From an uncultured Clostridia bacterium (GTDB lineage Bacteria > Bacillota > Clostridia > Saccharofermentanales > DTU023): DNA of 64,000 bases. The position numbers were made by a program, and so were the translations under genes. Where the stretch lies: positions 38,890 through 102,889 of the forward strand of contig CAMJYM010000002.1 in assembly GCA_946220865.1 (NCBI GenBank), read 5' to 3'. Below the pieces are notes generated by a model. It was not told where the DNA came from. It did not search any database and worked only from the letters and a program-made list of their open reading frames with translations. The stretch's first letter is position 1. Every line of letters begins with the position of its first letter. Positions 37,238 to 58,951 of the stretch are shown here, piece by piece.

Positions 37238-37702
37238 TTAGCTGATTTTGCCAGTCCTGGAAGGCCTGGCCGCATTCATCCACTCTTCGTGATCACGGTC
37301 AGAGGCCAATTCAGCCAGACTGATCGAGGAGAACAGCTTTTCTATTTTTTCCTGTACCCCCTGATAAAAGCGGCGCACGGGACAGTGATCTGCAGCACAG
37401 CGGCTGCAGTACGCGTCTTTCTCCAGACAACGGCTAATATAGCTGCTCTGTTCCATCACCCGAATGACATCAAAAAGGGTCATGGTTTCAGCCGGTCGAG
37501 CAAGACGGTAACCCCCGTTCACTCCTGGTTTAACAACGATTAGGCCGGCTTCGGAAAGTTTATTGCCGATTTTATACAAAAAGCTCCGCGGGACAACCAA
37601 TTGCTCAGCGAGTTCGCTTGAGGTAATGAGATTCTCTCCCTCCCTCATACTGAGGTACAGCATAATCCGAACGGCATAATCTGTGGTGATATTGAGTTGC
37701 AT
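37238..37702 (-). CDS. Rrf2-family transcriptional regulator (Cys-containing, possibly Fe-S)
   Basis: MQLNITTDYAVRIMLYL...SSELAEQLVVPRSFLYKIGNKLSEAGLI (wHTH), followed by a Cys cluster CLEKDAYCSRCAADHC. Confidence 0.88.
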   Translation of the reverse strand: MQLNITTDYAVRIMLYLSMREGENLITSSELAEQLVVPRSFLYKIGNKLSEAGLIVVKPGVNGGYRLARPAETMTLFDVIRVMEQSSYISRCLEKDAYCSRCAADHCPVRRFYQGVQEKIEKLFSSISLAELASDRDHEEWMNAARPSRTGKIS

Positions 37703-37852: not shown

Positions 37853-38102
37853 GCTTTATGTCGTCATGGAAATGTTCGTGGAAAAATGATCGATTTTACA
37901 GCAGGAGCCAGCCCATAGGCAAAGACGCCGTCTTCGCTTATAATTGAGAATAATAAAATATAGATTTCTTATGCAGCCGTTCGCTTTGCCACGTAAACTG
38001 CGCCGTTTGAGCCGTTACGTGCAGATGTGTATGAGCTGCAAAGCAACAGAAACCCAACCAGAATTTAAAGGTGAAGCTGCCGCTTCCGAATTGGAGGAAA
38101 AA

Positions 38103-39344
38103 ATGAAGATGATTTCCCTGAAAAGCGCTTTTTGCTTAGTTTTGAGCTTTGTGCTCAGCTGCAGTCTGCTCCTGAGCGCAAAAACTCTTGTCGTTTCAGC
38201 CGAAGCGAATGAAAGCCAAAGCAAAGAAGCTGGCGAAACCTCCTCAAGTGAAAAAAAAGGAGAAAAAGACGTGAGTGAAAAAACAGATCCCCGCACCCTG
38301 AGTGCAGAAGAACGCGAAAAAGGCGTTCTCTGTGTCTGGCCTCTCGGTCTGAAGTATGAGCTCCCCGAGATTCTCAAGGACGAACACGTCAAAGTTCGCA
38401 CAGACGGAATTCATGCCGATGAAGAGGATCGCCTCTACACCAGCCGGGGCTTCTACTTCCGTCCCCAGGCAACCCTTGATCTCGCCAAAGACATTCGTTT
38501 TGAGTACGATGTCACGGAGAATCGTGAGAACTACCAAAAACGCATGGACAAAGAAGTCCTGCCGTTCGATCTTCCCCTGTTCAAGGTGGTGAACCTGCGC
38601 AGCGACAAACTGCCCGAAAGTGAAGAAGAACGCGAAAAGCTCCTCCGCGAAGAACTGGAGAAGGCTTCTGATTTTGTGACGACTCCTGTCAAAGAGATCA
38701 AGAAACTTCTCGAAGAAGATGGCCTGAGCCAATATCTCCTGGTTTTTGCAGATCCTGAAACACCGCTGGCCACTCCGGAGGATGCCGAACTCTTTAAAAA
38801 AGTTCGTAAGGTCTGTGAAGAGCTGCTGAAAAACATGCAGAGCTTCCGTGCAGAGAAGAGTGAAGAAAGTTTCCCCAAGGTCAAAAAATGGACCTTTGAA
38901 GGCACAGACTACAATTTGAGCGATGAGCCGATCACCGATGCCATCCTCAAAAATGCCAAGCTGACCTATGTGGTCTACTGGACGACCTGGTGCCCCGATT
39001 GCCACAACGAGCTGAAATTCCTCGGAGAACAGCTGGATTTCCTCAAAGAGCATGATATTCAGCTGCTCGGCATCGTCAAAGACGTCAAGGCCGAAGAAAT
39101 TGACGAAGACGTGCTGGCTGAAGCGCATAAGGTCATTGACGAGCGCGGGCTGACTGACGCTATGCCCGTCATGCTGGACTCTGACGAGCTGGAAGATGGT
39201 CTCTTTATCCGCGCACTCAATATTCCTACGACCTTCTTTGTGGATGGTGAGGGCAAGATTTACCGCGCCTACGTTGAACCTGACACGTCCAAATGGCAGG
39301 ATGAGGCCCTCGCTATTCTCGCCGAGATGGACGCGAAGAAATAG
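38103..39344 (+). CDS. exported thioredoxin-fold (TlpA/redoxin-like) protein with a long N-terminal non-Trx region
   Basis: GGAGG lies 8 nt upstream of ATG 38103. Signal peptide MKMISLKSAFCLVLSFVLSCSLLLSA. The C-terminal domain carries YVVYWTTWCPDCHNE (CxxC). Confidence 0.82.
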   Translation: MKMISLKSAFCLVLSFVLSCSLLLSAKTLVVSAEANESQSKEAGETSSSEKKGEKDVSEKTDPRTLSAEEREKGVLCVWPLGLKYELPEILKDEHVKVRTDGIHADEEDRLYTSRGFYFRPQATLDLAKDIRFEYDVTENRENYQKRMDKEVLPFDLPLFKVVNLRSDKLPESEEEREKLLREELEKASDFVTTPVKEIKKLLEEDGLSQYLLVFADPETPLATPEDAELFKKVRKVCEELLKNMQSFRAEKSEESFPKVKKWTFEGTDYNLSDEPITDAILKNAKLTYVVYWTTWCPDCHNELKFLGEQLDFLKEHDIQLLGIVKDVKAEEIDEDVLAEAHKVIDERGLTDAMPVMLDSDELEDGLFIRALNIPTTFFVDGEGKIYRAYVEPDTSKWQDEALAILAEMDAKK

Positions 39345-40452: not shown

Positions 40453-41583
40453 TTATGCGCGTGGCAAACTGAGGAGCATGCAAGTTCCCTCTGCGGAGCT
40501 GGTCTCCACCTGCACGGAGCCGCCATGCAGTCTTGCAATCTCCCAGACGAGGGAGAGGCCGAGACCCACACCGCCATAGTCCCGGCTGCGGGATTGATCC
40601 ACTCTGAAAAAAGGCTGAAAAACGCTCTGCTGAAGCTCCGACGGTATGCCTTTGCCGCTGTCTCTCACGCGAATGTCGACTTCTTTTTCCATCGGGACAA
40701 TGGAGACAAGAACGCTCCCATTGGGGCGGTTGTATTTGATGGCATTTTCGCAGAGATTGAAGAGCAGCCGGTAGATCAGGGGATCACTGCCGCTGACGCA
40801 GGCGTCGCCCTCTCTTTCAAGGCTGATTTTATTTTTTTCCGCCAGCGGAGTAAGGTCCGTAAAAATTTCCTCAATCATGGGCAGGAGCTGGATCGTATCT
40901 TTACGCTCAACATTCTGAAAATGGCTCATTTCCAGCAGGATACCCGTCATCTGGCTCATCCGTTCGGTCTGCTCCCGCATCAAGCGGAGGAAGTCCCTGC
41001 TCTCTTCCGAAAGATCGGGGTGTTCCGCCGAAAAAAGCTCGATCTGAGCCTGCAACAGGGCCAGCGGGGTACGCAGCTCGTGAGCGGCATTGCCCGTAAA
41101 CTGGCGTTGCGCAGCAAAAGCGCGATTCAGGCGCTCCAGCATCTGGTTGAAAGAGCGGCTGAGCTGGCGAAATTCGGGCAGGAGATCTTCGTTAATCTTC
41201 ATATCACCCAGATTATTCAGCTGAACTTTCTCCACCTGAGCGACAAAACTGTGCAAGGGCTTCAAAGCATGCCCGCTGACAAACCAGGCTAATATCCCGC
41301 TCAGAACTGTCACGACAGCCGTGATGAGCCAAGAGTTCATAAAGAACGAGGTCTGAGCTCCCTGGATAATAATGGTCAGCCCTTCTTCCGTTCCTGTGGC
41401 CTCCGGGTCAAAAAAGGCTGTCTCCCCTTCGTTGGTGTCACTGTAACCTTGAATGGATTTACCAATTCTATCCATGGTGCGAATGCCGGAGAAGCCTAAG
41501 AGCAACTGCATAGCCACGCAAGTCAGGCAAATCAGCAAGGCGGTCATCAGGGTCATCCGCCACTGCAAAGAAAGTCGCTTCAT
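40453..41583 (-). CDS. sensor histidine kinase (two TM helices, HAMP, HisKA, HATPase)
   Basis: H-box AHELRTPLALL, N box LCENAIKYN, G boxes RDSGKGIP and GGVGLGLSLV. Confidence 0.9.
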   Translation of the reverse strand: MKRLSLQWRMTLMTALLICLTCVAMQLLLGFSGIRTMDRIGKSIQGYSDTNEGETAFFDPEATGTEEGLTIIIQGAQTSFFMNSWLITAVVTVLSGILAWFVSGHALKPLHSFVAQVEKVQLNNLGDMKINEDLLPEFRQLSRSFNQMLERLNRAFAAQRQFTGNAAHELRTPLALLQAQIELFSAEHPDLSEESRDFLRLMREQTERMSQMTGILLEMSHFQNVERKDTIQLLPMIEEIFTDLTPLAEKNKISLEREGDACVSGSDPLIYRLLFNLCENAIKYNRPNGSVLVSIVPMEKEVDIRVRDSGKGIPSELQQSVFQPFFRVDQSRSRDYGGVGLGLSLVWEIARLHGGSVQVETSSAEGTCMLLSLPRA

Positions 41584-42257
41584 GACTCTTCCCCTCCCAT
41601 GAGATAACCCTCGCCAATACGATTATGAATCGGATCGTAGCCCAGCGCCGCGCGCAGCTTCTTTCGCAAAGAGGAAATATGCACCCGAATGGAGTTACTG
41701 AAATTATCCACGCTGTTATCCCAGACATGCTCGATCAGCTCTTCCTGGCTGACAGGACGCCCCTGATGCACCAGCAGGTATTCCAGAATACCTGTTTCCT
41801 TGCGGGTGAGCGAGAGGAGCTTTCCACGTACTGAAGCCGACCTGGCCCGGGTATCAAAGCAAAGCTCTCCGCAGCTCAGCTGCACGCTTTGCTGGGCAAA
41901 ACGCCGCAGAGTCAGACTGCGGATACGGGCCTCCAGCTCGGCCAGATGAAAGGGTTTGGCCAGGTAGTCATTGGCACCGGCATCCAACCCTGCCACCTTA
42001 TCTTCCACCTCACTACGGGCAGATAGAATCAGCACCCGCGTCTCCTGGTCGGTCTCCCGCAGAGTCCGCAGGACCGTCATCCCATCCTTCAGCGGCAGGT
42101 TGAGATCCAGCACAACCAGATCATAGTGTTCGACGTCCAGCAGCTCCAGGGCCGCCTCCCCGTCATAGCAATAATCCACACTATAGGCAAGACGCCGCAG
42201 GCTGCGAACAATGGTCTCACAAAGTTCGCGTTCATCTTCAACGACTAAGAGATGCAT
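41580..42257 (-). CDS. OmpR-family response regulator
   Basis: MHLLVVEDE...DLVVLDLNLPLKDG...LSAR, plus the winged helix ...IRVHISSLRKKL. It overlaps the kinase gene by 4 nt. Confidence 0.92.
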   Translation of the reverse strand: MHLLVVEDERELCETIVRSLRRLAYSVDYCYDGEAALELLDVEHYDLVVLDLNLPLKDGMTVLRTLRETDQETRVLILSARSEVEDKVAGLDAGANDYLAKPFHLAELEARIRSLTLRRFAQQSVQLSCGELCFDTRARSASVRGKLLSLTRKETGILEYLLVHQGRPVSQEELIEHVWDNSVDNFSNSIRVHISSLRKKLRAALGYDPIHNRIGEGYLMGGEES

Positions 42258-42495: not shown

Positions 42496-42642
42496 ATGAA
42501 GCACGGAAAAAAAGTAGCGCTGCAGGCGCTACTCCTGGCCATTGGAGTCACCTTCTTATGTCTTGGCGCCCTGCGTGGCGAGACGGCAACGGTTTTAAGC
42601 AAAGCCATCAAATTATGTTTGGAGTGTGTGGGCATTGGCTAA
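42496..42642 (+). CDS. 48-aa membrane micro-protein with C-terminal CXXC (not in the supplied ORF track)
   Basis: ATG 42496 is preceded by GAAAGGA. It translates to MKHGKKVALQALLLAIGVTFLCLGALRGETATVLSKAIKLCLECVGIG*. Its stop lies 17 nt inside the next ORF. Confidence 0.6.
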   Translation: MKHGKKVALQALLLAIGVTFLCLGALRGETATVLSKAIKLCLECVGIG

Positions 42643-43564
42643 AAAATTTTCAGGCCTTTCACAGGCGATATCTCGTTCTCGAACCTGGATCCAGGCAGGA
42701 GCAACGTTTCTGACAAATATGCATCTGCCCAATTTTCTCAAAGGGCAACTTTATCAGGGACCAGGCAAAAAACTCTGCGTCCCCGGGCTCAACTGCTATT
42801 CCTGCCCTGCAGCCTCAGGAGCCTGTCCCATCGGAGCCTTTCAGGCGGTGGTCGGATCGTCGAAGTTCAGTTTTTCCTACTATGTCACAGGCTTTCTCAT
42901 CCTGCTGGGCGTCTTGCTGGGCCGCTTCATCTGCGGCTTCCTCTGCCCATTCGGCTGGTTTCAGGAGCTGCTGCACAAAATTCCCAGCAAAAAGTTTTCG
43001 ACCAAAAAGCTCAAAGCTCTGACCTGGCTAAAATATGCCATTTTACTGCTGATGGTCGTGCTCCTGCCCATGCTTCTGGTGAACGACGTTGGTATGGGCG
43101 ACCCCTACTTCTGCAAATACCTCTGCCCCCAAGGCGTGCTGGAGGGAGCCATCCCGCTCTCTTTAGCCAATACAGGCATTCGCTCGGCCCTCGGCTCACT
43201 CTTTGCCTGGAAATTCACCATTCTGCTGACTGTGATTGTCCTGAGCATTCTCTTTTACCGCCCCTTCTGCAAATGGCTTTGCCCGCTGGGCGCCTTTTAT
43301 GCCCTGCTGAACAAAGCCTCACTCTTTCAGATGAAGGTCGACAAAGACCGCTGCATTTCCTGTGGCAAATGCGCCAGGGTCTGCAAGATGGATGTCGACG
43401 TGACCAAAACGCCCAATCACAGCGAGTGCATTCGCTGCGGCATGTGTATCAACGCCTGTCCCACCAACGCCGTTAGTTTTCGCTGTTGTTTTGGTCAGGC
43501 TGAAGATAAGCCCTCGAAGATTAGCCCTCAAAGACAAGTGTCACAGGGACATGAATGTCTATAA
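42626..43564 (+). CDS. integral-membrane 4Fe-4S polyferredoxin (NapH/MauN/COG0348-like)
   Basis: NCYSCPAASGACP; three CxxxCPxG motifs (CGFLCPFG, CKYLCPQG, CKWLCPLG); two ferredoxin motifs CISCGKCARVC and CIRCGMCINACP; several TM segments. GTG start at 42626. Confidence 0.85.
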   Translation: MWALAKKFSGLSQAISRSRTWIQAGATFLTNMHLPNFLKGQLYQGPGKKLCVPGLNCYSCPAASGACPIGAFQAVVGSSKFSFSYYVTGFLILLGVLLGRFICGFLCPFGWFQELLHKIPSKKFSTKKLKALTWLKYAILLLMVVLLPMLLVNDVGMGDPYFCKYLCPQGVLEGAIPLSLANTGIRSALGSLFAWKFTILLTVIVLSILFYRPFCKWLCPLGAFYALLNKASLFQMKVDKDRCISCGKCARVCKMDVDVTKTPNHSECIRCGMCINACPTNAVSFRCCFGQAEDKPSKISPQRQVSQGHECL

Positions 43565-43601
43565 AGAAAAGTCATGTACAAAAGAAAAAGGAGTTCTCAA
43601 C

Positions 43602-44579
43602 ATGAATACAAAAAAATTAAGCATCAAAAAAGTCCTCATGCTGCTACTGGCCTTCGTGCTGGTCTTTAATCTGAGCGCCTGCAGCGGAAAAGGCGGAAAA
43701 AACGACAGCCAAAGTGCAAAAGCGAGTGAAGCCCAGGCCGAGCCTAAGAATCTCGACGAGGCCGTGGCCTTGCATAAAGACCTGATGTCCCAGGAAAATG
43801 CGATTCTCTCCATCAACACCGAACTTTGGGAAAAAGTTTTTATCGAAGCCGACAAAGGCATGGTCATGTCGGAGGATGGCAAAAATTACGGGGATTTTCT
43901 GCTGAAAACCATTGAGTCCAGTAAGTCTAAATTTAAAGCAGACGAGCTGAAACTGCTGAAGGAAGGCGCAGAAAAAATTCGGGATATCGAAAGTCAATTA
44001 ACTGTTCTGGAAGAAAAATTCCCGGAAGTCGCCCGCAAATCTCTGGATAGTGAGATGAGCGTGCCAGCGGACAGTTCTATGAACATTGCCAAGGATCAGG
44101 CTGCAGACGAGTCGCAGAAGTTCCCTGCCTTCGAGGGCAAGGATCTTGATGGAAAAGATGTCAGCAGCGACAAACTCTTCTCCGGCAACGCTGTGACCGT
44201 CGTCAACTTCTGGTTTACCACCTGCAGTCCCTGCGTGGGTGAACTGGGCGATCTGGAGGAATTGAATAAAGAGCTGGCCAAAAAAGGCGGTGCGGTCATA
44301 GGCATCAACTCTTTTACCCTGGACGGCCAGAAAGAAGCGATTAAAGAGGCGAAGGAGCTTCTGTCCAAAAAGGGCGTCAGCTATCAGAACGTGTATTTTG
44401 ACTCCGACAGCAAAGCTGGTGAATTTACCGGCAAGGTCTTTGCCTACCCCACCACCTATGTTGTCGACCGCAACGGCAAGATCGTTGGCGAGCCCATCGT
44501 AGGAGGCATCAACAACAAAGCTCAAAGGGAAAAGCTGCAGTCTCTCATCGACGAGGCCCTGGGAGCGGATAAAAAATAA
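43602..44579 (+). CDS. TlpA/ResA-like thiol-disulfide oxidoreductase lipoprotein
   Basis: AAAGGAG RBS. MNTKKLSIKKVLMLLLAFVLVFNLSAC (lipobox LSAC). C-terminal thioredoxin fold with VVNFWFTTCSPCVGE. Confidence 0.85.
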   Translation: MNTKKLSIKKVLMLLLAFVLVFNLSACSGKGGKNDSQSAKASEAQAEPKNLDEAVALHKDLMSQENAILSINTELWEKVFIEADKGMVMSEDGKNYGDFLLKTIESSKSKFKADELKLLKEGAEKIRDIESQLTVLEEKFPEVARKSLDSEMSVPADSSMNIAKDQAADESQKFPAFEGKDLDGKDVSSDKLFSGNAVTVVNFWFTTCSPCVGELGDLEELNKELAKKGGAVIGINSFTLDGQKEAIKEAKELLSKKGVSYQNVYFDSDSKAGEFTGKVFAYPTTYVVDRNGKIVGEPIVGGINNKAQREKLQSLIDEALGADKK

Positions 44580-49180: not shown

Positions 49181-50092
49181 CTAAAAGCTGGCGCCACCTC
49201 CGCCATGCGTGCCGCCGCTGGAGCCAATATGCGTACTGCTGCGGCCAGAAGAACCAGAGAACCCTCCCGATGAACTTTCCTTGACAATGGGAATCACCTG
49301 AACCCTGGTGTCGATAAGTTCGTCATCCAGTTGATTCATCGAGACGATACCGTTGGCGGCAATGCTGTAATACAAAGGACGAAATTTCGACTTATAGTCT
49401 CTCTTTTTTTTCATAAAGAAGAGGCCACCGCTGCCCAGACCTCCCAAAGCGCCAAGACCCAGCTCTCCAGGATTGAGGTCACGTGGAAGCGGAACCGCCG
49501 CTTCTGTGCCTGGACGTGGAGCCCTGGGGTCAAAATCGAGATAAGTTCCCTCTTCTCTGAACTGATTAGCCTGGACGCCGCGCGCAAGGAAACCTTCGGT
49601 CTTAGCGAACATCTTTCTCGCCATCGCCGCGACATCGCCCGCTTTCAGATCGGGCAGACCCGCGTCGAGGATCTCCTGGATATAAAGGTCGGGCAGAATG
49701 TCGATCAAGCGACCCGATGTGGAAAAATAAAGCTGCCGGTGTTCGAGGTCCAGCACAATGACACCGCCATCCGCATTGATGCGTCCCATCCACTCATCGA
49801 AAAAATCGTCCGCATAGTCCATCGTCGATTTTCCCTCGGTATCCTCGGTCGTCACGAGGAGAATGTCCTGCTGGTATTCTTTGGCGATCTGAGCCGTTCT
49901 CTCTTCGAATTCAACCCTCTCCTCTACGCTCAGTTTTTCGGCAAAGTCAAAGACACGCTGAGCGCGACACTCGGCTTCTTCCGCCAGAACAGGCCGGCAG
50001 GCAGACAACAGTGAGATGCTGAGCAGGACGAGCATCATCATCAGGAGAGTCCGGACAATCCAGCCCGGCCTTTGTTTTCTCAACGCTTTCAT
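49181..50092 (-). CDS. TPM-domain membrane protein (YdjH/YgcG-like)
   Basis: N-terminal TM or signal segment. TPM-like core ...VFDFAEKLSVEERVEFEERTAQIAKEYQQDILLVTT.... A second TM segment (LGLGALGGLGSGGLFFM). Gly/Ser-rich tail ...SSSGGFSGSSGRSS...GGGGASF. Confidence 0.8.
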   Translation of the reverse strand: MKALRKQRPGWIVRTLLMMMLVLLSISLLSACRPVLAEEAECRAQRVFDFAEKLSVEERVEFEERTAQIAKEYQQDILLVTTEDTEGKSTMDYADDFFDEWMGRINADGGVIVLDLEHRQLYFSTSGRLIDILPDLYIQEILDAGLPDLKAGDVAAMARKMFAKTEGFLARGVQANQFREEGTYLDFDPRAPRPGTEAAVPLPRDLNPGELGLGALGGLGSGGLFFMKKKRDYKSKFRPLYYSIAANGIVSMNQLDDELIDTRVQVIPIVKESSSGGFSGSSGRSSTHIGSSGGTHGGGGASF

Positions 50093-50107
50093 ATCGGTTC
50101 CCTCTCC

Positions 50108-51229
50108 TTAAAAGAAATAGTACAAAAGCAGCAGGAGCAGGATCACGACCAGAAGACCAATGCCCAGGCTGCTCAGGCCAAGTTTTTTCTGATCCAGCGG
50201 CAGCTCGCCAAAGGCCTCGCCGGTCTGTCCGTTCAGCGCGTAGACATAAGTTTTTCCAACGAATTTATAGGTCATGATCCAGACAGGCAGTAAGACGGTG
50301 AGCGGCTTATCCACCTTATTGACGTGCTCATCTCTGTCCAGCCTTACTTTGTCAAAACGGTCCATGCTCTGCCTGGCGATTTCAGTTCCATAGGCTTCCA
50401 TGCGCTGCTCAAACCGGGCGCGCACTTCGTCCTCATTCACCGTGCGCGTCTCCGCAAAAAAGCCGCTGAGGTAGGGTAGCGCAAAGGGTTTAAGTTCCTC
50501 CAGCTGATACCTGGCGACACTCTCGACAAGTTCAGGATCCACTTTATCCGATTTAAGATAGGCCATTTCCAGCATATTGGGCAGTTTTACCTCGCCCTGA
50601 CGGCTGAAGCGATAAACGGAGGTCGTAATGCGCTCTTCATTCGAAAAGCGCCTGCTCTCCGAAATTTCACCCTGACCCTGCAAATCCAGCTCTACTGTGC
50701 CCTCTGCCAGCCAGAAAGGCAGGTAGATGCCCGTCAGCTTTTCCAGCTGAGACCGGCTGGTAAAGGCCCTCGGAACATAAGTCTTTTTACCGGCCCAGGA
50801 GAGCAGTATCTTTTCCGCCTCCTCCCGGCTGATCTTAAAAGGCAGAATGAACTGCGGCTGAAATTCGCCCGATACCCTATCCTCGAGAATGATGGGATTA
50901 TGGCAGTAGTAGCAGCTCGTCGCCGCCGTTGTATCGTCGGTCACCACCTCGGCCCCGCAGCTCTGGCAGTGATAGCTGCGCATACAGGCCTTTTCGGAAC
51001 TGGAGGGACCCTGCTCAGCAGACTGTTCCGTGCCTTCACCGCCCATCTGGCGCTGCCTGCGTTCGGCTTCGCGCGCCGTGGCCGCCTCTCGCCCCCTGGC
51101 ATTAAAGGCTTCGACCTCTTCAACCGTAAAGTGACTGCGGCAAAAATCACAGTTCACCTGAGCACTTTCCGGTGAAAAGCTGAGGGGTGCGCCGCAATTG
51201 GGGCATTTGTAACTAACAGTGCTCATCAC
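50108..51229 (-). CDS. double zinc-ribbon, C-terminally membrane-anchored protein (YdjG-like)
   Basis: CPNC...CDFC and CQSC...CYYC pairs near the N-terminus. Conserved-looking ...GIYLPFWL... core. C-terminal TM helix LGIGLLVVILLLLLLYYFF. Confidence 0.75.
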   Translation of the reverse strand: MMSTVSYKCPNCGAPLSFSPESAQVNCDFCRSHFTVEEVEAFNARGREAATAREAERRQRQMGGEGTEQSAEQGPSSSEKACMRSYHCQSCGAEVVTDDTTAATSCYYCHNPIILEDRVSGEFQPQFILPFKISREEAEKILLSWAGKKTYVPRAFTSRSQLEKLTGIYLPFWLAEGTVELDLQGQGEISESRRFSNEERITTSVYRFSRQGEVKLPNMLEMAYLKSDKVDPELVESVARYQLEELKPFALPYLSGFFAETRTVNEDEVRARFEQRMEAYGTEIARQSMDRFDKVRLDRDEHVNKVDKPLTVLLPVWIMTYKFVGKTYVYALNGQTGEAFGELPLDQKKLGLSSLGIGLLVVILLLLLLYYFF

Positions 51230-51294
51230 ATGACTCCTGTAACATCTACAGCCTGGCTCTCAACTCGCGGCCTCTTCACCTGTTTTGCTCTGGC

Positions 51295-52527
51295 TTAATC
51301 CAGCTTTTGCCCGCATTCAGGGCAGAATTTAGGTCTGGGTTCGCCCAGTGCATGGCCACAGTTCGGGCAGAATCCTCCGACCTGGGCTTCGGGACGTTTC
51401 GCGCCACAGTTAGAACAGAATTTTCCACCCGCGTTTTGAGCCTGGCATTGGGGGCAAGTCCAGACATCTGCAGCAGCGGCGTTCGCTGCAGCGCCGCCGT
51501 GCTGACCGGCTCCATTCCCGGCTTCCCGCTGCATCTGAGCCTGATTGGCCTGAGAGGCCATGCCCATCATGTTGCCTCCGGCATTCATGCCGATACCCAT
51601 GCCCATAAAGGTCGCTCCAGCTCCGGCCTCGTTGGAGCCTGCTGCCTCGAGGCCGCGGGCGATAGAACCCTGCACATAGCCTTCGCGCACATTGGGATCA
51701 CCCAGCATCGCGCCTTTGTTGCGCATATTGATGAGTTCTTTGGATTCATCATCATAGCTGATGCTGCTGATGCCGACGGAAACGACCTCAATGCCGCGCA
51801 GTTTCGTCCAGTCCTCATCCAGCGTGTTGTCCATATAGCGCGAAAGTTCGCGCATTTTAGAGGTCACCTGAGAAATACGAATGCCATCGACGGACATCTG
51901 ATTCATCGAGCTTTGCAGAGCCTCCAGAAATTCCGCGAGGTACTGCTCGTTGATCTCGTCGATGTGGACGTTGCGGGCGTTGCGCGGCAGGGCCTGCTGG
52001 TAAAAGAGAATCGGATCCACCACGCGGATCGAATAGGTGCCAAAGCAGCGCAGAAAGAGTTCCGCGTTGTAGAAATTATCAAAATATTGCAGGGGGTTCG
52101 GCGTACCAAATTTAATGCCTTTGATTTCCTGCAGATTGATGTAGTACACGACCTGTTTCGTGGGGTTTGCGCCGCCAAATTTAAAACGCTGCCAGCTCTC
52201 CTTCACCGAGTCCTTCAAGGAGCCGTTAAAAAGCGAGGGCAATGAGGAATTATCCACTTTAAAAACACCGGGTTCTGCAGCATAATCCACGATTTTGCCA
52301 TTATCGACGAGTAGAGCCGCCTGCATATCGTAGACATGGATCAGCGAGCCATTGGAAATGGCATCCTCTGTCCCCCGGGTGTTACTGTCACGGCGGTCGC
52401 CTTTGCGCACCCGCACCCCTTCACAGCACACCACGCCCTCGCCCATTTCGGCAGGCTCGATAGCCTCCAGCCACTGGTCGCCCAGGCTGCCACCCACGGC
52501 GCCCGCAAATGCTTTAATAAGTCCCAT
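51295..52527 (-). CDS. SPFH/band-7-like protein with C-terminal double zinc ribbon (YdjI/COG4260-like)
   Basis: GGAGG RBS before ATG 52527. MGLIKAFAGAVGGSLGDQWLE... followed by an SPFH-like core. A Gly/Ala/Met/Asn-rich linker. C-terminal CPQC..CSNC and CPNC..CPEC. Confidence 0.83.
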   Translation of the reverse strand: MGLIKAFAGAVGGSLGDQWLEAIEPAEMGEGVVCCEGVRVRKGDRRDSNTRGTEDAISNGSLIHVYDMQAALLVDNGKIVDYAAEPGVFKVDNSSLPSLFNGSLKDSVKESWQRFKFGGANPTKQVVYYINLQEIKGIKFGTPNPLQYFDNFYNAELFLRCFGTYSIRVVDPILFYQQALPRNARNVHIDEINEQYLAEFLEALQSSMNQMSVDGIRISQVTSKMRELSRYMDNTLDEDWTKLRGIEVVSVGISSISYDDESKELINMRNKGAMLGDPNVREGYVQGSIARGLEAAGSNEAGAGATFMGMGIGMNAGGNMMGMASQANQAQMQREAGNGAGQHGGAAANAAAADVWTCPQCQAQNAGGKFCSNCGAKRPEAQVGGFCPNCGHALGEPRPKFCPECGQKLD

Positions 52528-52946
52528 CTTAAACCTCCCAAATTGCACAGGGCGGCCACCTGTGGCCGTCGTTAAAAGGCAACAATAATAATTTTAATCA
52601 TAATAACAAAAAGCTTTTCACATTGCAGTAAATCCCACGTTGTAGAAAATCAACTTCAAAGAAAAACACGCTGCGGAAAGGCTCCCGCAGCAGAAATATC
52701 GCGTTGTAAAAATAGCCTGCCGCAGGGAGCTCATGTCGCAAAGATGCCTTCGTCAGAGCTTTTATACCATCGTTAAAAAGCTTGCAGGCACTCATCAAAG
52801 CCTTTAAACCTTCGACAAAGCCAGTATAATTATTGTCAAAACCTTCAAAATTGTTTGAGAGTTCTGTTTTTTTGTCGTGAAAAGCGTATAATGAACGAAG
52901 TTAGACGAAATATGTCCACTTTGATAAGTTGATAAGGAGGATTGCT

Positions 52947-54863
52947 ATGCTGTATCAATGCACTGAAGCGCATGAAGCGTTCCGGAAGAAGGTTCGCAGC
53001 TTTGCTGAAGGAGAAATCAAGTCACTCGCTTTCAGCCTGGATCAGAACGATCAGTTCCCGGACGAGATCGTCAAAAAGATGGGTGAGCTCGGCCTGATGG
53101 GGATTCCCTATCCGAAGGAATATGGCGGCGCCGGCCTCGATGCCATTTACTACGCCATCGCCGTTGAAGAACTCTCCCGCGTGGATGGCGGGGTCGGCGT
53201 GATCTGCTCCGCCCACACCTCACTCGGCAGCTATCCTATCGCCGCCTTCGGCACGGAAGAGCAGAAAAAGAAATATCTGACTCCCCTGGCCAAAGGTGAA
53301 AAGCTCGGTGCTTTCGGTCTGACCGAGCCCAATGCCGGCTCCGACGCCGGCGGCACAGAAACGATTGCCGAACTCGACGGGGACTACTATATCCTTAACG
53401 GCGGCAAAGTTTTCATCACGAACGCACCCAAAGCCGACACTTATGTCGTTTTTGCCGTGACCACTCCGGGCATCGGCGTCAAAGGCATTTCCGCCTTCAT
53501 TGTAGAAAAAGGCTGGGAGGGGTTCAGCTTCAGCGATCCCTACGACAAGATGGGCATCCGCTCCTCCTCTACAGCTGAACTTATGTTCAACAACGTCAAA
53601 GTGCCTAAGGAAAACCTGCTCGGCAAAGAGGGCCAGGGCTTCCGCATTGCCATGGAGACCCTCGATGGCGGCCGTATCGGCATTGCCTCTCAGGCTCTCG
53701 GCATCGGCCAGGGCGCCTATGAAGCGGCTCTCGCTTACGCCAAAGAGCGCGTCCAATTTGGCAAACCCATCGCCTTCCAGCAAAACCTCAGCTTTAAGCT
53801 CGCCGATATGGCGACCCAGCTGCGTGCTTCCCGCCTGATGATCTACTCCGCAGCCGAGCTGAAGAGCAATCACCAGCCTTACAGCATGGAAGCCGCCATG
53901 GCCAAACTTTATGCCTCCGACTGCACCCACAAGATTGTCGACGAAGCCCTGCAAATTCATGGCGGCAGCGGCTTCATCAAGGGCATTGATGTCGAGCGCT
54001 TCTATCGCGACGCCAAGATCACGATGATCTACGAAGGCACCAACGAAATCATGCGGCTCGTCATTGCCAATCACATCATTGGCCGCCCGCCGAAAAAGGC
54101 CAGGGCTGTCGTTGAAAAAGCTGAGCCCATTACCGGCATCCGCAAAAACCAGATTTTCACAGGTACGCCCCAGGAAGCTGTCAACCAGCTCGTCGCCGCT
54201 CTGAAAAAAGACGGTTATGACTTCAGCGTCGGCATTCCTGTCGATACCCCCATCGTCGATGCCGAACGTGTCGTCTCTGTCGGCAAGGGCATTGGTGACA
54301 AGGCCAACATGGACGTTGCGAGAAAGCTCGCTCACGCGGCTGGCGCGGCCCTCGGCTCCTCCCGTCCCGTCGCCGAAACGCTGAAATACCTCCCGCTCAA
54401 CCGTTATGTCGGCATGTCCGGCCAGAAATTCCGCGGTAACCTCTACTTTGCCCTCGGTATCTCCGGCGCCAACCAGCACCTCCGTGGCATTAAGGATGCC
54501 AGCACGATCGTCGCCATCAACACCAACGCAGGCGCACCCATTTTCAAGAACTGCGATTACGGCATCGTCGGCGATATGCACGAGATCATGCCGCTGCTTA
54601 TTAAAGCCTTTGGCGAAGGCGAGAAGAAGCCCGCTCCGGCCTTCAAGCGCAAGAGAAGAGTCCTGCCGAAGAAGCTGGCTCCTGTCGGCGTCTGGGTCTG
54701 CATGGGCTGCGGACACGAGTACGATCCCAAATACGGCGATCCCGAAAACGGCGTCGCACCAGGTACCGAATTTGAGCGCATCCCGGACGACTGGGTCTGC
54801 CCCGAATGCAACAAGGAAAAATCGCACTACATTAAAGTTCAGTTCCAGAAGAACCGCAGCTAA
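52947..54863 (+). CDS. tri-domain fusion: acyl-CoA dehydrogenase + ETF-alpha C-terminal (FAD) domain + rubredoxin
   Basis: AAGGAGG RBS. The ACAD region runs [13 protein letters not shown]...IYEGTNEI. The ETF-alpha-like region is [34 protein letters not shown]...[34 protein letters not shown]...[15 protein letters not shown]. The rubredoxin region is [12 protein letters not shown]...DDWVCPEC. Confidence 0.9.
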
Positions 54864-54894
54864 TTGAGCACAGCAAATTGAGAAAGGAAATCTT

Positions 54895-56115
54895 ATGAAC
54901 AACGTTCGCAAAGTCTGTGATGATCTTTACTGGGTCGGTGCCAATGACCACCGCACCGCCCTTTTCGAAAACATTTTCCCCATCCCCCGCGGCGTGTCCT
55001 ACAACTCCTACGTGCTGCTGGACGAAAAAACCGCGGTCTTCGATTCCGTCGACTGGAATTATGGCAATGAGTACCTGCACAATGTTGAAGAGACCCTTGC
55101 TGGCCGTCCACTCGATTACATCATCGTCAACCATATGGAGCCGGATCACTGTGCCTCCATCGGCCTGATTCATCAAGTCCATCCGGAAGCCACCATTGTC
55201 TCCACCGAGCAGGCCTTCCAGATGATGGATCAATTCCAGTTTGATTTTGGCGATGCGAAAAAGCAGGTTGTCAATGAATTTGACACCCTCTCGCTCGGCA
55301 AACACAATCTGCTCTTTGTCTACGCCCCCATGGTTCACTGGCCCGAGGTCATGATGACCTTTGACACGACCAATGGCGTGCTCTTCTCGGCCGACGCTTT
55401 CGGCACCTTCGGCGCTCTGGACGGCGTGCTCTTCAACGACGAAGTCAACTTTGAGCGCGACTGGCTGCCCGATGCCCGCCGTTACCTCACCAACATCGTT
55501 GGCAAGTACGGACCGCAAGTTCAGGCCATTCTCGCCAAAGCCGGCACCATCGACATCAAAATGCTCTGCCCGCTGCACGGTCCGGTCTGGAGAAGCAATC
55601 TCGGCTGGTTCATCGACAAATACGACAAATGGAGCAAATACGAACCCGAAGAAAAGGGCGTCATGATCGCTTATGCCTCCATGTACGGCCACACGGCCTA
55701 CACGGCCCAGGTTCTCGCCTCTCTGCTGCATGAGCGCGGCGTGCACAATGTCGTCGTCTACGACGTCTCCAACACCCATATGTCGCAGCTCGTTTCCGAG
55801 ACCTTCCGTCTCAGTCATGTCGTGCTGGCCTCAGTGACCTACAACCTCGGCATCTACCCCATCATGCACAACTACCTCATGGATCTGGCCGCCCTCAACG
55901 TGCAGAACCGCACCTTCGCCCTGATTGAAAACGGCACCTGGGCCGCTAAATCCGGCGACCTCATGGAAGAACTGCTCAACACGCAGTGCAAGACCATGGA
56001 CATCATGAGTGACCGTGTCACCGTCAATTCCGCCCTCAACGAAGGCAATCGCAGCGACATGGAAGCCCTTGCCGACGCCCTCGCCGAAGACATCCTCGGC
56101 AAAAAGAGCAAGTAA
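54895..56115 (+). CDS. fprA: FprA-family class A flavodiiron protein (O2/NO reductase)
   Basis: MBL-like diiron motif NHMEPDH, plus a C-terminal flavodoxin domain (VMIAYASMYGHTAYTAQ...). It starts 31 nt after the fusion gene. Confidence 0.92.
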   Translation: MNNVRKVCDDLYWVGANDHRTALFENIFPIPRGVSYNSYVLLDEKTAVFDSVDWNYGNEYLHNVEETLAGRPLDYIIVNHMEPDHCASIGLIHQVHPEATIVSTEQAFQMMDQFQFDFGDAKKQVVNEFDTLSLGKHNLLFVYAPMVHWPEVMMTFDTTNGVLFSADAFGTFGALDGVLFNDEVNFERDWLPDARRYLTNIVGKYGPQVQAILAKAGTIDIKMLCPLHGPVWRSNLGWFIDKYDKWSKYEPEEKGVMIAYASMYGHTAYTAQVLASLLHERGVHNVVVYDVSNTHMSQLVSETFRLSHVVLASVTYNLGIYPIMHNYLMDLAALNVQNRTFALIENGTWAAKSGDLMEELLNTQCKTMDIMSDRVTVNSALNEGNRSDMEALADALAEDILGKKSK

Positions 56116-57220
56116 GCCTCAGCCTCCATAAAGCTGAACAAAAGGACTGTCCCTCAAAAACACGAAAGTGCTGAGGGGCAGTCCTCTTTTTATGCACGGC
56201 AATCTCAGACTGCCCCCTTACGCAATCAATGGAAAAAATATTGTGGTAACAATAGTTTTTTAATGAAGAACTCTTATCTCGCGTCATGTCAAAGGCTCCG
56301 TCAAAAGCCAGATAAGTCTGTGAAAGGGGTACATAAAGAATTTCTATTTCATAACCTTCCTCTAATTCAATGAACAAGTGGAAGTTCCCTTTTTGCAAGT
56401 TCGCAGCAGTCTTATCATCTTCGGACAGCGCCTCAATCTCACCCTCTGTGCCTATTATCTCAGAGCGTAAGCTAATGCTTTCTTCGGTCACTTTACTGAA
56501 GTCGTAAGATTCACGTTTCAACTGGCTGACTTTTTCATGATTACTGGGTAAACCTTGCCATCTTAAGTCATTTAAAACCTGCTGCAAACGTTGACATTGT
56601 TTGTCGTAACCTATATTTTTGCAATCCCTGATATTTTCTATTATTTTCACAATTGTATTTTGTTCTTTGATCAGGCGGATCAGTGAACCGTCCTGACCTC
56701 GAACCTCAATTTTTATCACCTTTTGTGGACATTCGTACTTCATTAATGCAGCATTAATGGTGGTTCCCTCCGGGATGCTGATCTTATATCCCTTTGTGCA
56801 TATGAGGTGATATGAGCCTTGGTTCTTCAATATAAGAATCGCATTGCTCCTGGGATAATTTGCATAACGATATACTTTACTTCCTACTAGTTCCCGACAC
56901 GCTCCTACTGGTGCGCTCGTGACATCTCCAACATATTCCCCGATATCCTTATCACATATTGAAATATCTTCTTCTCTTAAAGGCAGATTAAACCGAAGTC
57001 GATCTTCACGAGTGGCCACACGATATTCCAGGTCATCAAGATGATCAATATGAAGAGGACCTATCCCTGACGGGAGTACCAAATCCTTGTCGCACAAAAG
57101 CATGGTGTCGGAATGATGATGACAGGATGTACAAATTTCCTCAAACAAAATAAAGAGTGCCCCCAAGGCTATGAGAAAACATATAAATAATAAGATGCGT
57201 TTTGAACCTTGTTTTATCAT
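56036..57220 (-). CDS. hypothetical membrane-anchored protein in an AT-rich islet; 3' end doubtful
   Basis: I prefer ATG 57220 (MIKQGSKRILLFICFLIALGALFILF = TM anchor). The ORF has no stop until 56036, so it reads through the fprA terminator and 80 nt antisense into fprA. I recognise no family. Confidence 0.5.
   Translation of the reverse strand: MIKQGSKRILLFICFLIALGALFILFEEICTSCHHHSDTMLLCDKDLVLPSGIGPLHIDHLDDLEYRVATREDRLRFNLPLREEDISICDKDIGEYVGDVTSAPVGACRELVGSKVYRYANYPRSNAILILKNQGSYHLICTKGYKISIPEGTTINAALMKYECPQKVIKIEVRGQDGSLIRLIKEQNTIVKIIENIRDCKNIGYDKQCQRLQQVLNDLRWQGLPSNHEKVSQLKRESYDFSKVTEESISLRSEIIGTEGEIEALSEDDKTAANLQKGNFHLFIELEEGYEIEILYVPLSQTYLAFDGAFDMTRDKSSSLKNYCYHNIFSIDCVRGQSEIAVHKKRTAPQHFRVFEGQSFCSALWRLRLTCSFCRGCLRRGRRQGLPCRCDCLR
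56143..56192 (+). terminator. Rho-independent terminator after fprA (A-run upstream, possibly bidirectional)
   Basis: AGGACTGTCCCTCA/TGAGGGGCAGTCCT 14-bp stem (one G-U pair) with a 15-nt loop, then CTTTTTA. It is preceded by AACAAAA. Confidence 0.75.
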
Positions 57221-57227
57221 ATATATT

Positions 57228-57353
57228 TTATATTCGTGAAAATAATGCTTTCTTAAAAAAGGTACATTCAGTAGCAGCTCTAACAACATGTTGTCCCGAT
57301 CCAAATACGACTAAAACGAGCAAAAAACAGAGAATAGCTCTAAATATTTTCAT
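57228..57353 (-). CDS. candidate 41-aa hydrophobic micro-ORF
   Basis: AGGAGGAGGG lies 4 nt upstream of ATG 57353. It translates to MKIFRAILCFLLVLVVFGSGQHVVRAATECTFFKKALFSRI*. Its stop lies 8 nt before ATG 57220 of the next ORF. Confidence 0.3.
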   Translation of the reverse strand: MKIFRAILCFLLVLVVFGSGQHVVRAATECTFFKKALFSRI

Positions 57354-57531
57354 TTTACCCTCCTCCTAAAATGTAAAAAAGCTTGCTAACATTTTGAAAT
57401 ACTTAACAATAAAATTTTAAAAAATATTATATACTATTTTATTATTTGCTGTCGAATATAGCTTGGAACTCATCATTTTATGTTTCACAGCTGCTCAGGC
57501 AGTAGCAATACTATTAAATTTCGTCTAAAAT

Positions 57532-57602
57532 GGAATCAGATTCCGGAATTGACGGAAAATTGAATGGGAATCTTAAATGAACCGAGCGTTGAATCAGATT
57601 CC
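57532..57602. promoter_or_regulatory. two copies of the palindrome (G)GAATCAGATTCC, about 59 bp apart, upstream of the ATPase gene
   Basis: GGAATCAGATTCC at 57532-57544 and GAATCAGATTCC at 57591-57602. The second copy ends 15 nt before ATG 57618. Confidence 0.4.
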
Positions 57603-57617
57603 TGAAGGACACAACAT

Positions 57618-58838
57618 ATGACATATATCAGGCGCGAAATCGAAGAACACGTTAAAACTTTAGTTCATTCTTTTAAGGTCGTATTGGTAACCGGACCTCG
57701 GCAGGTTGGCAAATCGACCTTATTAAAGGAATTGTTTCAAGACCAATATCGCTATGTCAGTTTAGACGACATCAATGAAGTTCAAAGCGCACGTCTGGAT
57801 CCTAAACTCTTTTTCATTAACCACCCGGGAAAACTGATTATTGACGAAATTCAGCTTTGCCCGGAACTTTTCCCTGAAATCAAACGCCTCGTCGACCAGA
57901 GCGAAAACAGTGGACAGTTTATTCTGACGGGCTCTCAGACTTTTTCTCTCATGGCCAATGTCAGCGAAAGTCTGGCAGGCCGGGTGGGGTTAATCGAACT
58001 CAAGCCCTTATCGACGCGGGAGATCCAGGGAAAGGGAAAAAACGCACCTTTCAAGCCCTCCATGGAAAAAATAAACTCAATCGTACCTGAGATCTCATAC
58101 CCTGAACTTTGGAAAATCATTCACCGGGGTTCCCTTCCTGAACTTTACCGCCAGCCGTCACTCCCAGCCGAAAGTTATTACGCTTCCTATGTCTCAACCT
58201 TTATTCAAAGGGACGTCCGGCAAATAACTGCGATTCAGAATTTAAGTCTGTTTAATCGCTTTATTTCTGTTCTGGCTGCACGAATAAGCCAGGAGCTCAA
58301 TTATTCCAGCATCGCTCAGGAAGTTGGGGTCGACCAGAAAACGATTAAATCCTGGATAGGCATACTGGAAGCAAGTGGTATTGTTTATATTATCCAGACC
58401 TTTTCAAACAATCTGCTCAAACGCGTCACCAAAGCTCCTGTCCTGTACTTTTTTGACACAGGTCTCGCTGCCTATCTTGGACGGTGGAAAACTCCGGAAA
58501 CTTTGCAGAACGGAGCCTATTCGGGCGCTATTTTAGAAAATTACTGTGTCTCAGAAATCATCAAATCCTACAGCAACCAAGGTGTCGTCCATTATCCCCT
58601 GTTTTTCTATCGCGACAAAGATCAAAGGGAAATTGACTTGATTATTGAAGAATCAGGTACCCTTTATCCCATAGAAATCAAGTCATCCGCCAGCCCTCAG
58701 CCAGCCATGACCCGGCATATGGCCATTCTGGAAAAAGCCCAGGGTTATAAGCTCGGCCTAAAGACCATCCTGGCCCAGGTCGATCGTTATTACTTACTGA
58801 GTGAAAACACCCTCGTCTGCCCGATTAAAGATATTTAA
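57618..58838 (+). CDS. AAA+ ATPase of the COG1373/DUF4143 type with a C-terminal PD-(D/E)xK-like motif
   Basis: Walker A GPRQVGKST, Walker B LIIDEIQ, C-terminal ...YRDKDQREIDLIIEESGTLYPIEIKSS (D...ExK). Confidence 0.85.
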   Translation: MTYIRREIEEHVKTLVHSFKVVLVTGPRQVGKSTLLKELFQDQYRYVSLDDINEVQSARLDPKLFFINHPGKLIIDEIQLCPELFPEIKRLVDQSENSGQFILTGSQTFSLMANVSESLAGRVGLIELKPLSTREIQGKGKNAPFKPSMEKINSIVPEISYPELWKIIHRGSLPELYRQPSLPAESYYASYVSTFIQRDVRQITAIQNLSLFNRFISVLAARISQELNYSSIAQEVGVDQKTIKSWIGILEASGIVYIIQTFSNNLLKRVTKAPVLYFFDTGLAAYLGRWKTPETLQNGAYSGAILENYCVSEIIKSYSNQGVVHYPLFFYRDKDQREIDLIIEESGTLYPIEIKSSASPQPAMTRHMAILEKAQGYKLGLKTILAQVDRYYLLSENTLVCPIKDI

Positions 58839-58951
58839 CTGGCCGACCCGCCTGTTTCGGACAACCTGCCTCAACGTGCTTTTTTACCTTCGCAGTAGAA
58901 CGTTCTGATGAATAAGCTCCACATAAGAACTCATGGGTACTCAACTGACGT

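Follow-up and report, generated by a model that had tools for sequence, protein, structure and literature searches.

In a 64-kb stretch of DNA from an uncultured Clostridiales bacterium (the window, to which all positions refer), we find two adjacent genes that very probably specify an orthologue of butyryl-CoA:oxygen oxidoreductase (BOOR), an acyl-CoA:O2 oxidoreductase. The first gene encodes a 638-residue fusion, called BCR below, of an acyl-CoA dehydrogenase (ACAD), the FAD domain of the alpha subunit of electron-transfer flavoprotein (ETF) and a rubredoxin, and the second encodes a class A flavodiiron protein (FDP). For this pair the architecture, the operon, the conservation of cofactor-binding and catalytic residues and the synteny across phyla are established; the substrate, water as product, the stoichiometry of the complex and the lack of NO reductase activity would be carried over from the characterised orthologue. 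The features of the pair are the following.

52947..54863, plus strand: BCR gene, acyl-CoA dehydrogenase + ETF-alpha FAD domain + rubredoxin, 638 aa (reading frame, Pfam, NCBIfam, N-termini of homologues)
52962..54077, plus strand: ACAD module of the short-chain/butyryl-CoA dehydrogenase type, residues 6-377 (Pfam)
54144..54611, plus strand: ETF-alpha domain II (alpha-FAD domain), residues ~400-555 (Pfam, NCBIfam, alignment to EtfA)
54693..54827, plus strand: rubredoxin module, residues 583-627, with Cys585/588/618/621 (Pfam; rubredoxin structures at 1e-15 to 1e-17)
54864..54894, plus strand: intergenic spacer of 31 nt with an AAAGGAA ribosome-binding site (sequence, terminator scan)
54895..56115, plus strand: class A flavodiiron protein (FDP/FprA), 406 aa (reading frame, Pfam, NCBIfam, PDB alignment)
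54997..55581, plus strand: metallo-beta-lactamase-like diiron domain, FDP residues 35-229 (Pfam ODP 2e-18; alignment to 1ycf)
55660..56091, plus strand: flavodoxin-like FMN domain, FDP residues 256-399 (NCBIfam flav_short, 256-396)
56143..56192, plus strand: intrinsic terminator, AGGACTGTCCCTC...GAGGGGCAGTCCT 13-bp hairpin followed by the T-run CTTTTTAT (sequence; inner hairpin found by scan)

The BOOR system was first shown in 2024 in Fusobacterium nucleatum (Bystrom & Wolthers, Biochemistry 2024, 63:2352, as summarised in PMC12288474). According to that summary, FN1424 ('BCR') is a fusion of Bcd, the C-terminus of EtfA (the FAD domain) and rubredoxin, it adjoins the class A FDP FN1423 in a two-gene operon, and the two proteins assemble as an alpha4beta4 complex that was named butyryl-CoA:oxygen oxidoreductase and is described as being without NO reductase activity. 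The oxidation of butyryl-CoA and the reduction of O2 to water by this complex are related in the same terms in PMC12630350 and PMC12528894. BOOR is stated to be encoded by many obligately anaerobic Firmicutes, gut butyrate producers included (PMC12288474), and a preprint, which agrees with these descriptions of the system, calls the pair widespread in gut Clostridia (PMC13404960). The architecture and adjacency of the window pair are thus already known as BOOR, as is its spread in Firmicutes, and a statement in the original prediction for this DNA, that no biochemical characterisation of the architecture was known, is out of date. The published name behind the abbreviation BCR, 'butyryl-CoA reductase', is confusing.

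Conceptually, the window pair holds nothing new. It adds a probable orthologue from an uncultured Clostridiales bacterium, illustrates that the system can be rediscovered from sequence alone by a reader without tools, and provides comparative data: a near-obligate BCR-FDP synteny, a set of invariant residues, a subset of loci with an Rrf2 gene, and rare variants that lack the rubredoxin or the FDP.

The longest reading frame for BCR, counted from the first TTG, is 52929..54863 (plus strand). We assign a length of 638 residues because the ATG at 52947 is preceded by an AAGGAGG ribosome-binding site and agrees with the N-termini of all homologues (MLY/MLF...), which line up with it. Pfam finds the complete ACAD (Acyl-CoA_dh_N, residues 6-118, 4e-42; Acyl-CoA_dh_M, 122-217, 1e-24; Acyl-CoA_dh_1, 229-377, 5e-50), then ETF_alpha (PF00766, 436-516, 5e-24) and Rubredoxin (583-627, 1.7e-17), so confirming the three-domain reading frame of the original prediction. 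The ETF-like part is widened to residues 382-555 by the NCBIfam EtfA models, and a Lys/Pro-rich linker (556-582) precedes the rubredoxin module. All of the motifs that had been quoted (IYEGTNEI, ...DYGIVGD and CMGC...CPEC in BCR, HMEPDH in the FDP) are present in the sequence. In the NCBI database, the exact window sequences are entered for an uncultured Clostridiales bacterium, BCR as a MAG protein, and carry the names 'acyl-CoA dehydrogenase family protein' (BCR) and 'FprA family A-type flavoprotein' (FDP).

The catalytic and cofactor-binding residues that were checked are conserved throughout. The catalytic Glu363 of the ACAD module, which sits in IYEGTNEI, and the four rubredoxin cysteines (585, 588, 618 and 621) are invariant in 36 of 36 sequences. 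The ETF module aligns to residues 205-326 (domain II) of C. difficile EtfA (5ol2_A) and also to human ETF-alpha; its R473, S491 and H511, likewise invariant in all 36, align with R249, T266 and H286 of the human protein, which we take to be FAD contacts in the human ETF structure. The label 'domain III' that this segment had been given needs correction, as the FAD domain of ETF is conventionally domain II, the C-terminal half of EtfA. Pfam and NCBIfam gave no match to EtfB or to ETF domain I in BCR or in the neighbouring proteins, and only EtfA residues ~205-326 are represented; lacking EtfB, EtfA domain I and an NADH site, BCR cannot bifurcate electrons.

By sequence, the closest solved relative of the ACAD module is C. 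difficile Bcd (5ol2_C, 1.3e-139), and an AlphaFold2 model of BCR superimposes on the same chain with 59% identity and a target TM-score of 0.95; the next structural relatives are the enzymes of A. fermentans (4l1f) and M. elsdenii (1buc) and rat/human short-chain acyl-CoA dehydrogenase (1jqi among the matches). The model (mean pLDDT 82, pTM 0.60) has confident ACAD, ETF (~400-555, with pLDDT 80-95 over residues 400-555) and rubredoxin domains, joined by low-confidence stretches at 383-391 and 576-578, a picture that fits mobile, tethered electron-carrying domains. Residues 402-421 form an extra beta-alpha unit ahead of where EtfA domain II canonically begins. No PDB chain matched the full BCR architecture by sequence or by fold, the matches being to separate Bcd, EtfA, rubredoxin and FDP chains.

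The downstream protein has the two-domain layout of a class A FDP, its Pfam content being ODP/Lactamase_B plus flavodoxin only, with the HMEPDH motif present. Its closest solved structures are the Moorella FDP (1ycf, 4e-47, the best match) and D. gigas ROO (1e5d, 5e-46). All seven diiron ligands (H80, E82, D84, H85, H148, D167 and H228) are invariant in 34 of 34 sequences. By Pfam and PDB alignment, the polypeptide carries no extra redox domain of the kind found in the multidomain FDP classes B-I; the rubredoxin is carried by the dehydrogenase instead. The gene starts exactly 31 nt behind BCR, as had been claimed, and the terminator scan found no terminator in this spacer and a hairpin behind the FDP gene, in line with the earlier view that a single terminator ends the pair. 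The BCR and FDP genes are accordingly predicted to form a bicistronic unit.

A count of how often the fusion sits beside FprA had been proposed as a check. A scan of one genome per species, combined with tblastn, yielded 35 loci with a full-length BCR, and 34 of these have a co-oriented FDP gene right behind it (33 complete, one cut by a contig end), mostly at a distance of 11-110 nt. The 35 loci span four phyla (Bacillota, Fusobacteriota, Spirochaetota and Synergistota). Many are from Clostridia; the taxa represented include Clostridium, Anaerostipes, Lachnospiraceae, Oscillibacter, Flavonifractor, Faecalispora, Peptoniphilus and Anaerosalibacter, together with Fusobacterium (L009, L029), Fusobacteriaceae (L016, L036), Brachyspira and Synergistaceae. 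With the four syntenic Fusobacterium/Fusobacteriaceae pairs, which come from relatives of F. nucleatum and not from that species itself, the window BCR shares 69-71% and the window FDP 61-66% identity, and over large stretches the ACAD core does not vary between the window and Fusobacterium BCRs. The only full-length BCR without an FDP within 5 kb is that of Allobaculum mucilyticum (L026:5001-6872), which is also the most divergent (58-60% identity).

In a protein search with the window BCR that reached at least 8000 candidates, all 120 matches listed carry the three-module Pfam signature, with identities among them of 64-80% plus one cluster at 99%, and judged by these sequences the three-module fusion is widespread. 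Among the matches listed for a BCR from a Fusobacterium metagenome-assembled genome (MAG) there are only 'Fusobacterium sp.' clusters of ~95% identity, and a cluster look-up for L029 yielded F. gastrosuis and F. russii. Some database entries deviate in length. P0018, P0075 and P0089 (669-684 aa, alignment A1) contain internal tandem duplications of ~33-47 residues within the ACAD or ETF modules, which are probably artefacts of metagenome assembly, and further over-long BCR entries reach 713-791 aa. A fusion of the FDP was suspected from members of 636-637 aa in the FDP cluster of L029; this was dropped, as the representative (P0255) is an ordinary BCR, and the members in question presumably reflect an artefact of clustering.

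Taken as a BOOR, the complex would serve strict anaerobes as a terminal oxidase that is soluble and cytoplasmic. The ACAD module, using its own FAD, would convert a short-chain acyl-CoA (most likely butyryl-CoA) into the enoyl-CoA; the ETF-alpha domain II, a tethered unit with a second FAD, would split the electron pair into single electrons; the C-terminal rubredoxin Fe(Cys)4, on its flexible Lys/Pro-rich linker, would ferry these singly to the FDP's FMN; and the diiron site would turn O2 into 2 H2O. If the F. nucleatum complex is a guide, the assembly would be alpha4beta4, which fits an ACAD tetramer together with head-to-tail FDP dimers. The chain from acyl-CoA through the two flavins and the rubredoxin to the FDP and O2, bypassing NAD(P)H, had been proposed in the original prediction and agrees with the biochemistry of FN1424/FN1423 as far as it is summarised in PMC12288474. 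That source gives redox potentials of about -10 mV for crotonyl/butyryl-CoA and +820 mV for O2/H2O, and because of this difference the forward direction is overwhelmingly likely. The crotonyl-CoA formed could be re-reduced by bifurcating Bcd-EtfAB, so that the removal of O2 would cost no NAD(P)H directly and may add to energy conservation.

BOOR is a recently recognised means of O2 detoxification in strict anaerobes that uses the weak reductant butyryl-CoA in place of NAD(P)H. It links exposure to oxygen with a reduced output of butyrate and may permit energy conservation via Bcd-Etf/Rnf.

Several observations weigh against assigning the window pair to BOOR. The likeness to FN1424/FN1423 is gauged by proxy, through other Fusobacterium species. 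Among NCBIfam models, BCR scores best with acryloyl-CoA reductase (AcrC), reaching 471 bits where the cutoff is 640 bits, and the chain length of the substrate is not fixed by the sequence. No butyrate-pathway genes were found in the 64-kb window, nor was an Rrf2 gene or a pseudogene remnant of one found directly upstream of the window BCR. Lastly, Asp53 of the FDP occupies the position of Asp52 in E. coli NorV, the NO-reductase type of residue. The S-M-Y-G-x-T loop of the same protein holds Tyr264, invariant in 34 of 34 sequences and located at the position of Tyr271 of the E. histolytica FDP, a residue that guards this O2-selective enzyme during turnover (PMC13133992). Swapping these two second-sphere residues in the E. 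coli FDP leaves selectivity unchanged, which makes them poor predictors (PMC13133992), and Asp53 and Tyr264 therefore carry little weight for the question of O2 versus NO. A call on selectivity from second-sphere residues was dropped, the window FDP being a mixture of the NorV-like Asp53 and the E. histolytica-like Tyr264.

Of the explanations that compete with an O2-reducing complex, a fortuitous adjacency of two independent proteins is effectively refuted by the synteny count. The solitary BCR of Allobaculum mucilyticum would be in its favour, but an FDP immediately downstream on the same strand at 34 of 35 loci in four phyla, usually 11-110 nt away, a 31-nt spacer without terminator in the window, and the co-purification of the F. 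nucleatum orthologues as alpha4beta4 (as summarised in PMC12288474) all speak for a functional pair. It is quite unlikely that the same complex serves to detoxify NO, as an acyl-CoA:NO oxidoreductase producing N2O. Many class A FDPs do reduce NO, the top NCBIfam and PDB names for the window FDP read 'nitric oxide reductase', and Asp53 points in the same direction; against this, the F. nucleatum complex is described as having no NO reductase activity (PMC12288474), and the NCBIfam NorV models remain far under their cutoff (206 vs 635 bits). NO as an alternative acceptor, which the original prediction had allowed for, is thus unsupported.

The same applies to its further suggestion that the fusion might run in reverse, as a rubredoxin-fed crotonyl-CoA or acryloyl-CoA reductase with the FDP as a mere neighbour or safety valve, which we regard as very improbable. 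Typical rubredoxin potentials lie near that of the crotonyl/butyryl-CoA couple (about -10 mV), so that in principle the first steps could run either way, and AcrC as best model and the published name of the fusion would both agree with a reductase. Yet Pfam analysis of the neighbouring proteins found no reductant for the rubredoxin encoded nearby, neither an NADH:rubredoxin oxidoreductase nor a ferredoxin-linked enzyme. A terminal oxidase is the sole partner that is conserved (34 of 35 loci), so a reverse reaction leaves the near-obligate FDP unexplained, O2 reduction at +820 mV would draw the chain forward, and the activity measured for the orthologue, according to the published summary, is the oxidation of butyryl-CoA. 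A BOOR-type complex that acts on another acyl-CoA, such as propionyl-, valeryl-, isobutyryl- or isovaleryl-CoA from amino-acid fermentation, is a refinement of the BOOR assignment and not a contradiction of it, and we consider it unlikely. The ACAD module is just 59% identical to a bona fide Bcd, no NCBIfam equivalog cutoff is reached, and the window holds amino-acid catabolic genes (urocanase, glutamate-mutase-associated MutL and an Orn/Lys/Arg decarboxylase); on the other side, the nearest relatives in sequence and fold are all butyryl-CoA or short-chain enzymes (5ol2_C, 4l1f, 1buc, 1jqi), and the ACAD core is largely invariant between the window and Fusobacterium BCRs.

Within the BOOR assignment there is a small chance that the window complex departs from the published scheme, in that it may not be specific for butyryl-CoA but serve short-chain or branched acyl-CoAs from amino-acid fermentation in general, and be regulated unlike the Rrf2-linked versions, and that the ETF-type FAD may feed the FDP directly, a wiring that is as yet undescribed. 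The hint of a direct transfer comes from proteins of 560-568 aa that consist of the ACAD and ETF-alpha modules without the rubredoxin (L025:5001-6683, L030:89-1774 and L032:1602-3308; the hosts are a Fusobacterium sp., a Tissierellia MAG and a Peptoniphilaceae genome). An FDP gene is found beside two of these proteins' genes (L030, FDP at 1886-3100; L032, divergent FDP at 75-1292), which suggests either a wiring without rubredoxin or a rubredoxin supplied in trans.

Compared with the F. nucleatum BOOR, the window pair has the same three-module fusion, the same gene order with the class A FDP next in a two-gene operon, and the same cofactor-binding and catalytic residues; it differs in its host, an uncultured Clostridiales bacterium, and, from 10 of the 35 full-length loci, in having no Rrf2 gene beside it. 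The ACAD is 59% identical to the C. difficile Bcd of the bifurcating Bcd-EtfAB complexes (C. difficile 5ol2, A. fermentans 4l1f/4kpu, C. kluyveri), and the ETF module corresponds to the EtfA domain II whose alpha-FAD shuttles electrons to and from Bcd. In contrast to these complexes, BCR lacks EtfB, EtfA domain I, the beta-FAD and the NADH site, its electrons would exit via the fused rubredoxin, and its physiological direction would be the oxidation of acyl-CoA rather than the reduction of crotonyl-CoA. In the chains that lead from NADH:rubredoxin oxidoreductase via rubredoxin to an FDP (D. gigas ROO, C. acetobutylicum FprA), rubredoxin likewise hands single electrons directly to a class A FDP, with water as the product of O2 reduction, but there the reductant is NAD(P)H at -320 mV, as opposed to acyl-CoA at about -10 mV in BOOR, and the rubredoxin is free, whereas in BCR it is fused to the dehydrogenase.

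Moorella thermoacetica Hrb, a flavin reductase-rubredoxin fusion encoded beside a class A FDP (as outlined in PMC12288474), is similar in arrangement, but has an FMN-type NAD(P)H:flavin oxidoreductase domain where BCR has the ACAD-ETF tandem. In the PDB, the window FDP matches best to the Moorella FDP (1ycf), which, unlike BOOR, has NO reductase activity. E. coli NorV/NorW, with a class B FDP, shares the FDP core and a covalently attached rubredoxin in the electron path, but that rubredoxin is part of the FDP polypeptide and not of a dehydrogenase, electrons come from NADH via NorW, and the system is NO-selective.

The region upstream of BCR contains one promoter-like feature.

52803..52830, plus strand: promoter-like site TTTAAA-16-TATAAT, ~115 nt 5' of the BCR start (consensus scan)

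Matches to the promoter consensus are not enriched relative to shuffled sequence. The -10 element of this site overlaps a weak PerR/Fur-box-like match at 52824-52838. In a scan for the PerR/Fur-box consensus TTATAATNATTATAA that tolerated up to 3 mismatches, three of the four matches in the window fell within 400 nt upstream of BCR (52583-52606, 52824-52838). This cluster could be due to chance, because the upstream region is AT-rich and the matches have 2-3 mismatches; we treat it as a lead only, and not as evidence of regulation. No known RNA elements were found by Rfam in the 400-nt leader or in the operon. At 52669-52692 there is a perfect 7-bp inverted repeat, GCTGCGG...CCGCAGC (a 10-bp stem if G-T pairs are counted), flanked by an A-run and a T-run. 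The repeat scores as a terminator for the minus strand, although no gene of that strand ends at this point; it may insulate the divergent SPFH and BCR genes from each other or act as a regulatory hairpin.

Ten of the 35 full-length loci, and the truncated L037 as well, have a co-oriented Rrf2-family gene immediately ahead of BCR (~100-500 nt 5' of BCR in L003, L007, L008, L010, L011, L015, L019, L022, L037, L042 and L076), which accords with the preprint PMC13404960. The window pair differs from these loci in having no adjacent Rrf2 gene. The sole Rrf2 gene of the window (37238-37702) was rejected as a BOOR-linked regulator: it is 15 kb away, it shares 31-37% identity with the BCR-linked Rrf2 proteins of other loci, and comparison of its intergenic region with that of BCR revealed no common operator. 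This gene (minus strand) is divergent from 37944-39344 (plus strand), which encodes a 466-aa protein with a C-terminal AhpC/TSA-redoxin domain, and a two-component system, a Fer4_5 polyferredoxin-like protein and a second redoxin-domain protein are encoded near it (40453-42257, minus strand; 42626-43564 and 43491-44579, plus strand). These Rrf2 and redoxin genes, 10-15 kb from the BOOR pair, may form a thiol/redox-stress cluster.

The chromosomal surroundings of the pair are unremarkable. On the opposite strand upstream of BCR (49181-52548, minus strand) are genes for a TPM-domain protein, a 373-aa zinc-ribbon protein without Pfam match and an SPFH/Band-7 protein with a double zinc ribbon; an ABC-2 transporter is also encoded upstream on this strand. 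Among the other gene products of the window are Mfd, RlmH, an EPSP-synthase-family protein, urocanase, glutamate-mutase-associated MutL, enzymes of polyamine synthesis and transporters, a gene content compatible with an amino-acid-fermenting, Clostridium-like organism. Two long reading frames gave no Pfam match at E<=1e-5 (13622-15016, 464 aa, and 19109-20437, 442 aa, both on the minus strand).

Right after the BOOR terminator begins a stretch of low GC content (56000-58900, 40% vs ~52% for the whole window). It contains a 422-aa reading frame without Pfam match (56036-57304, minus strand), whose 3' end extends through the terminator hairpin and 80 nt into the FDP gene, and a DUF4143/AAA_14 ATPase gene at 57618-58838. 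The stretch has the look of acquired DNA, and one of its genes may have lost its native stop codon.

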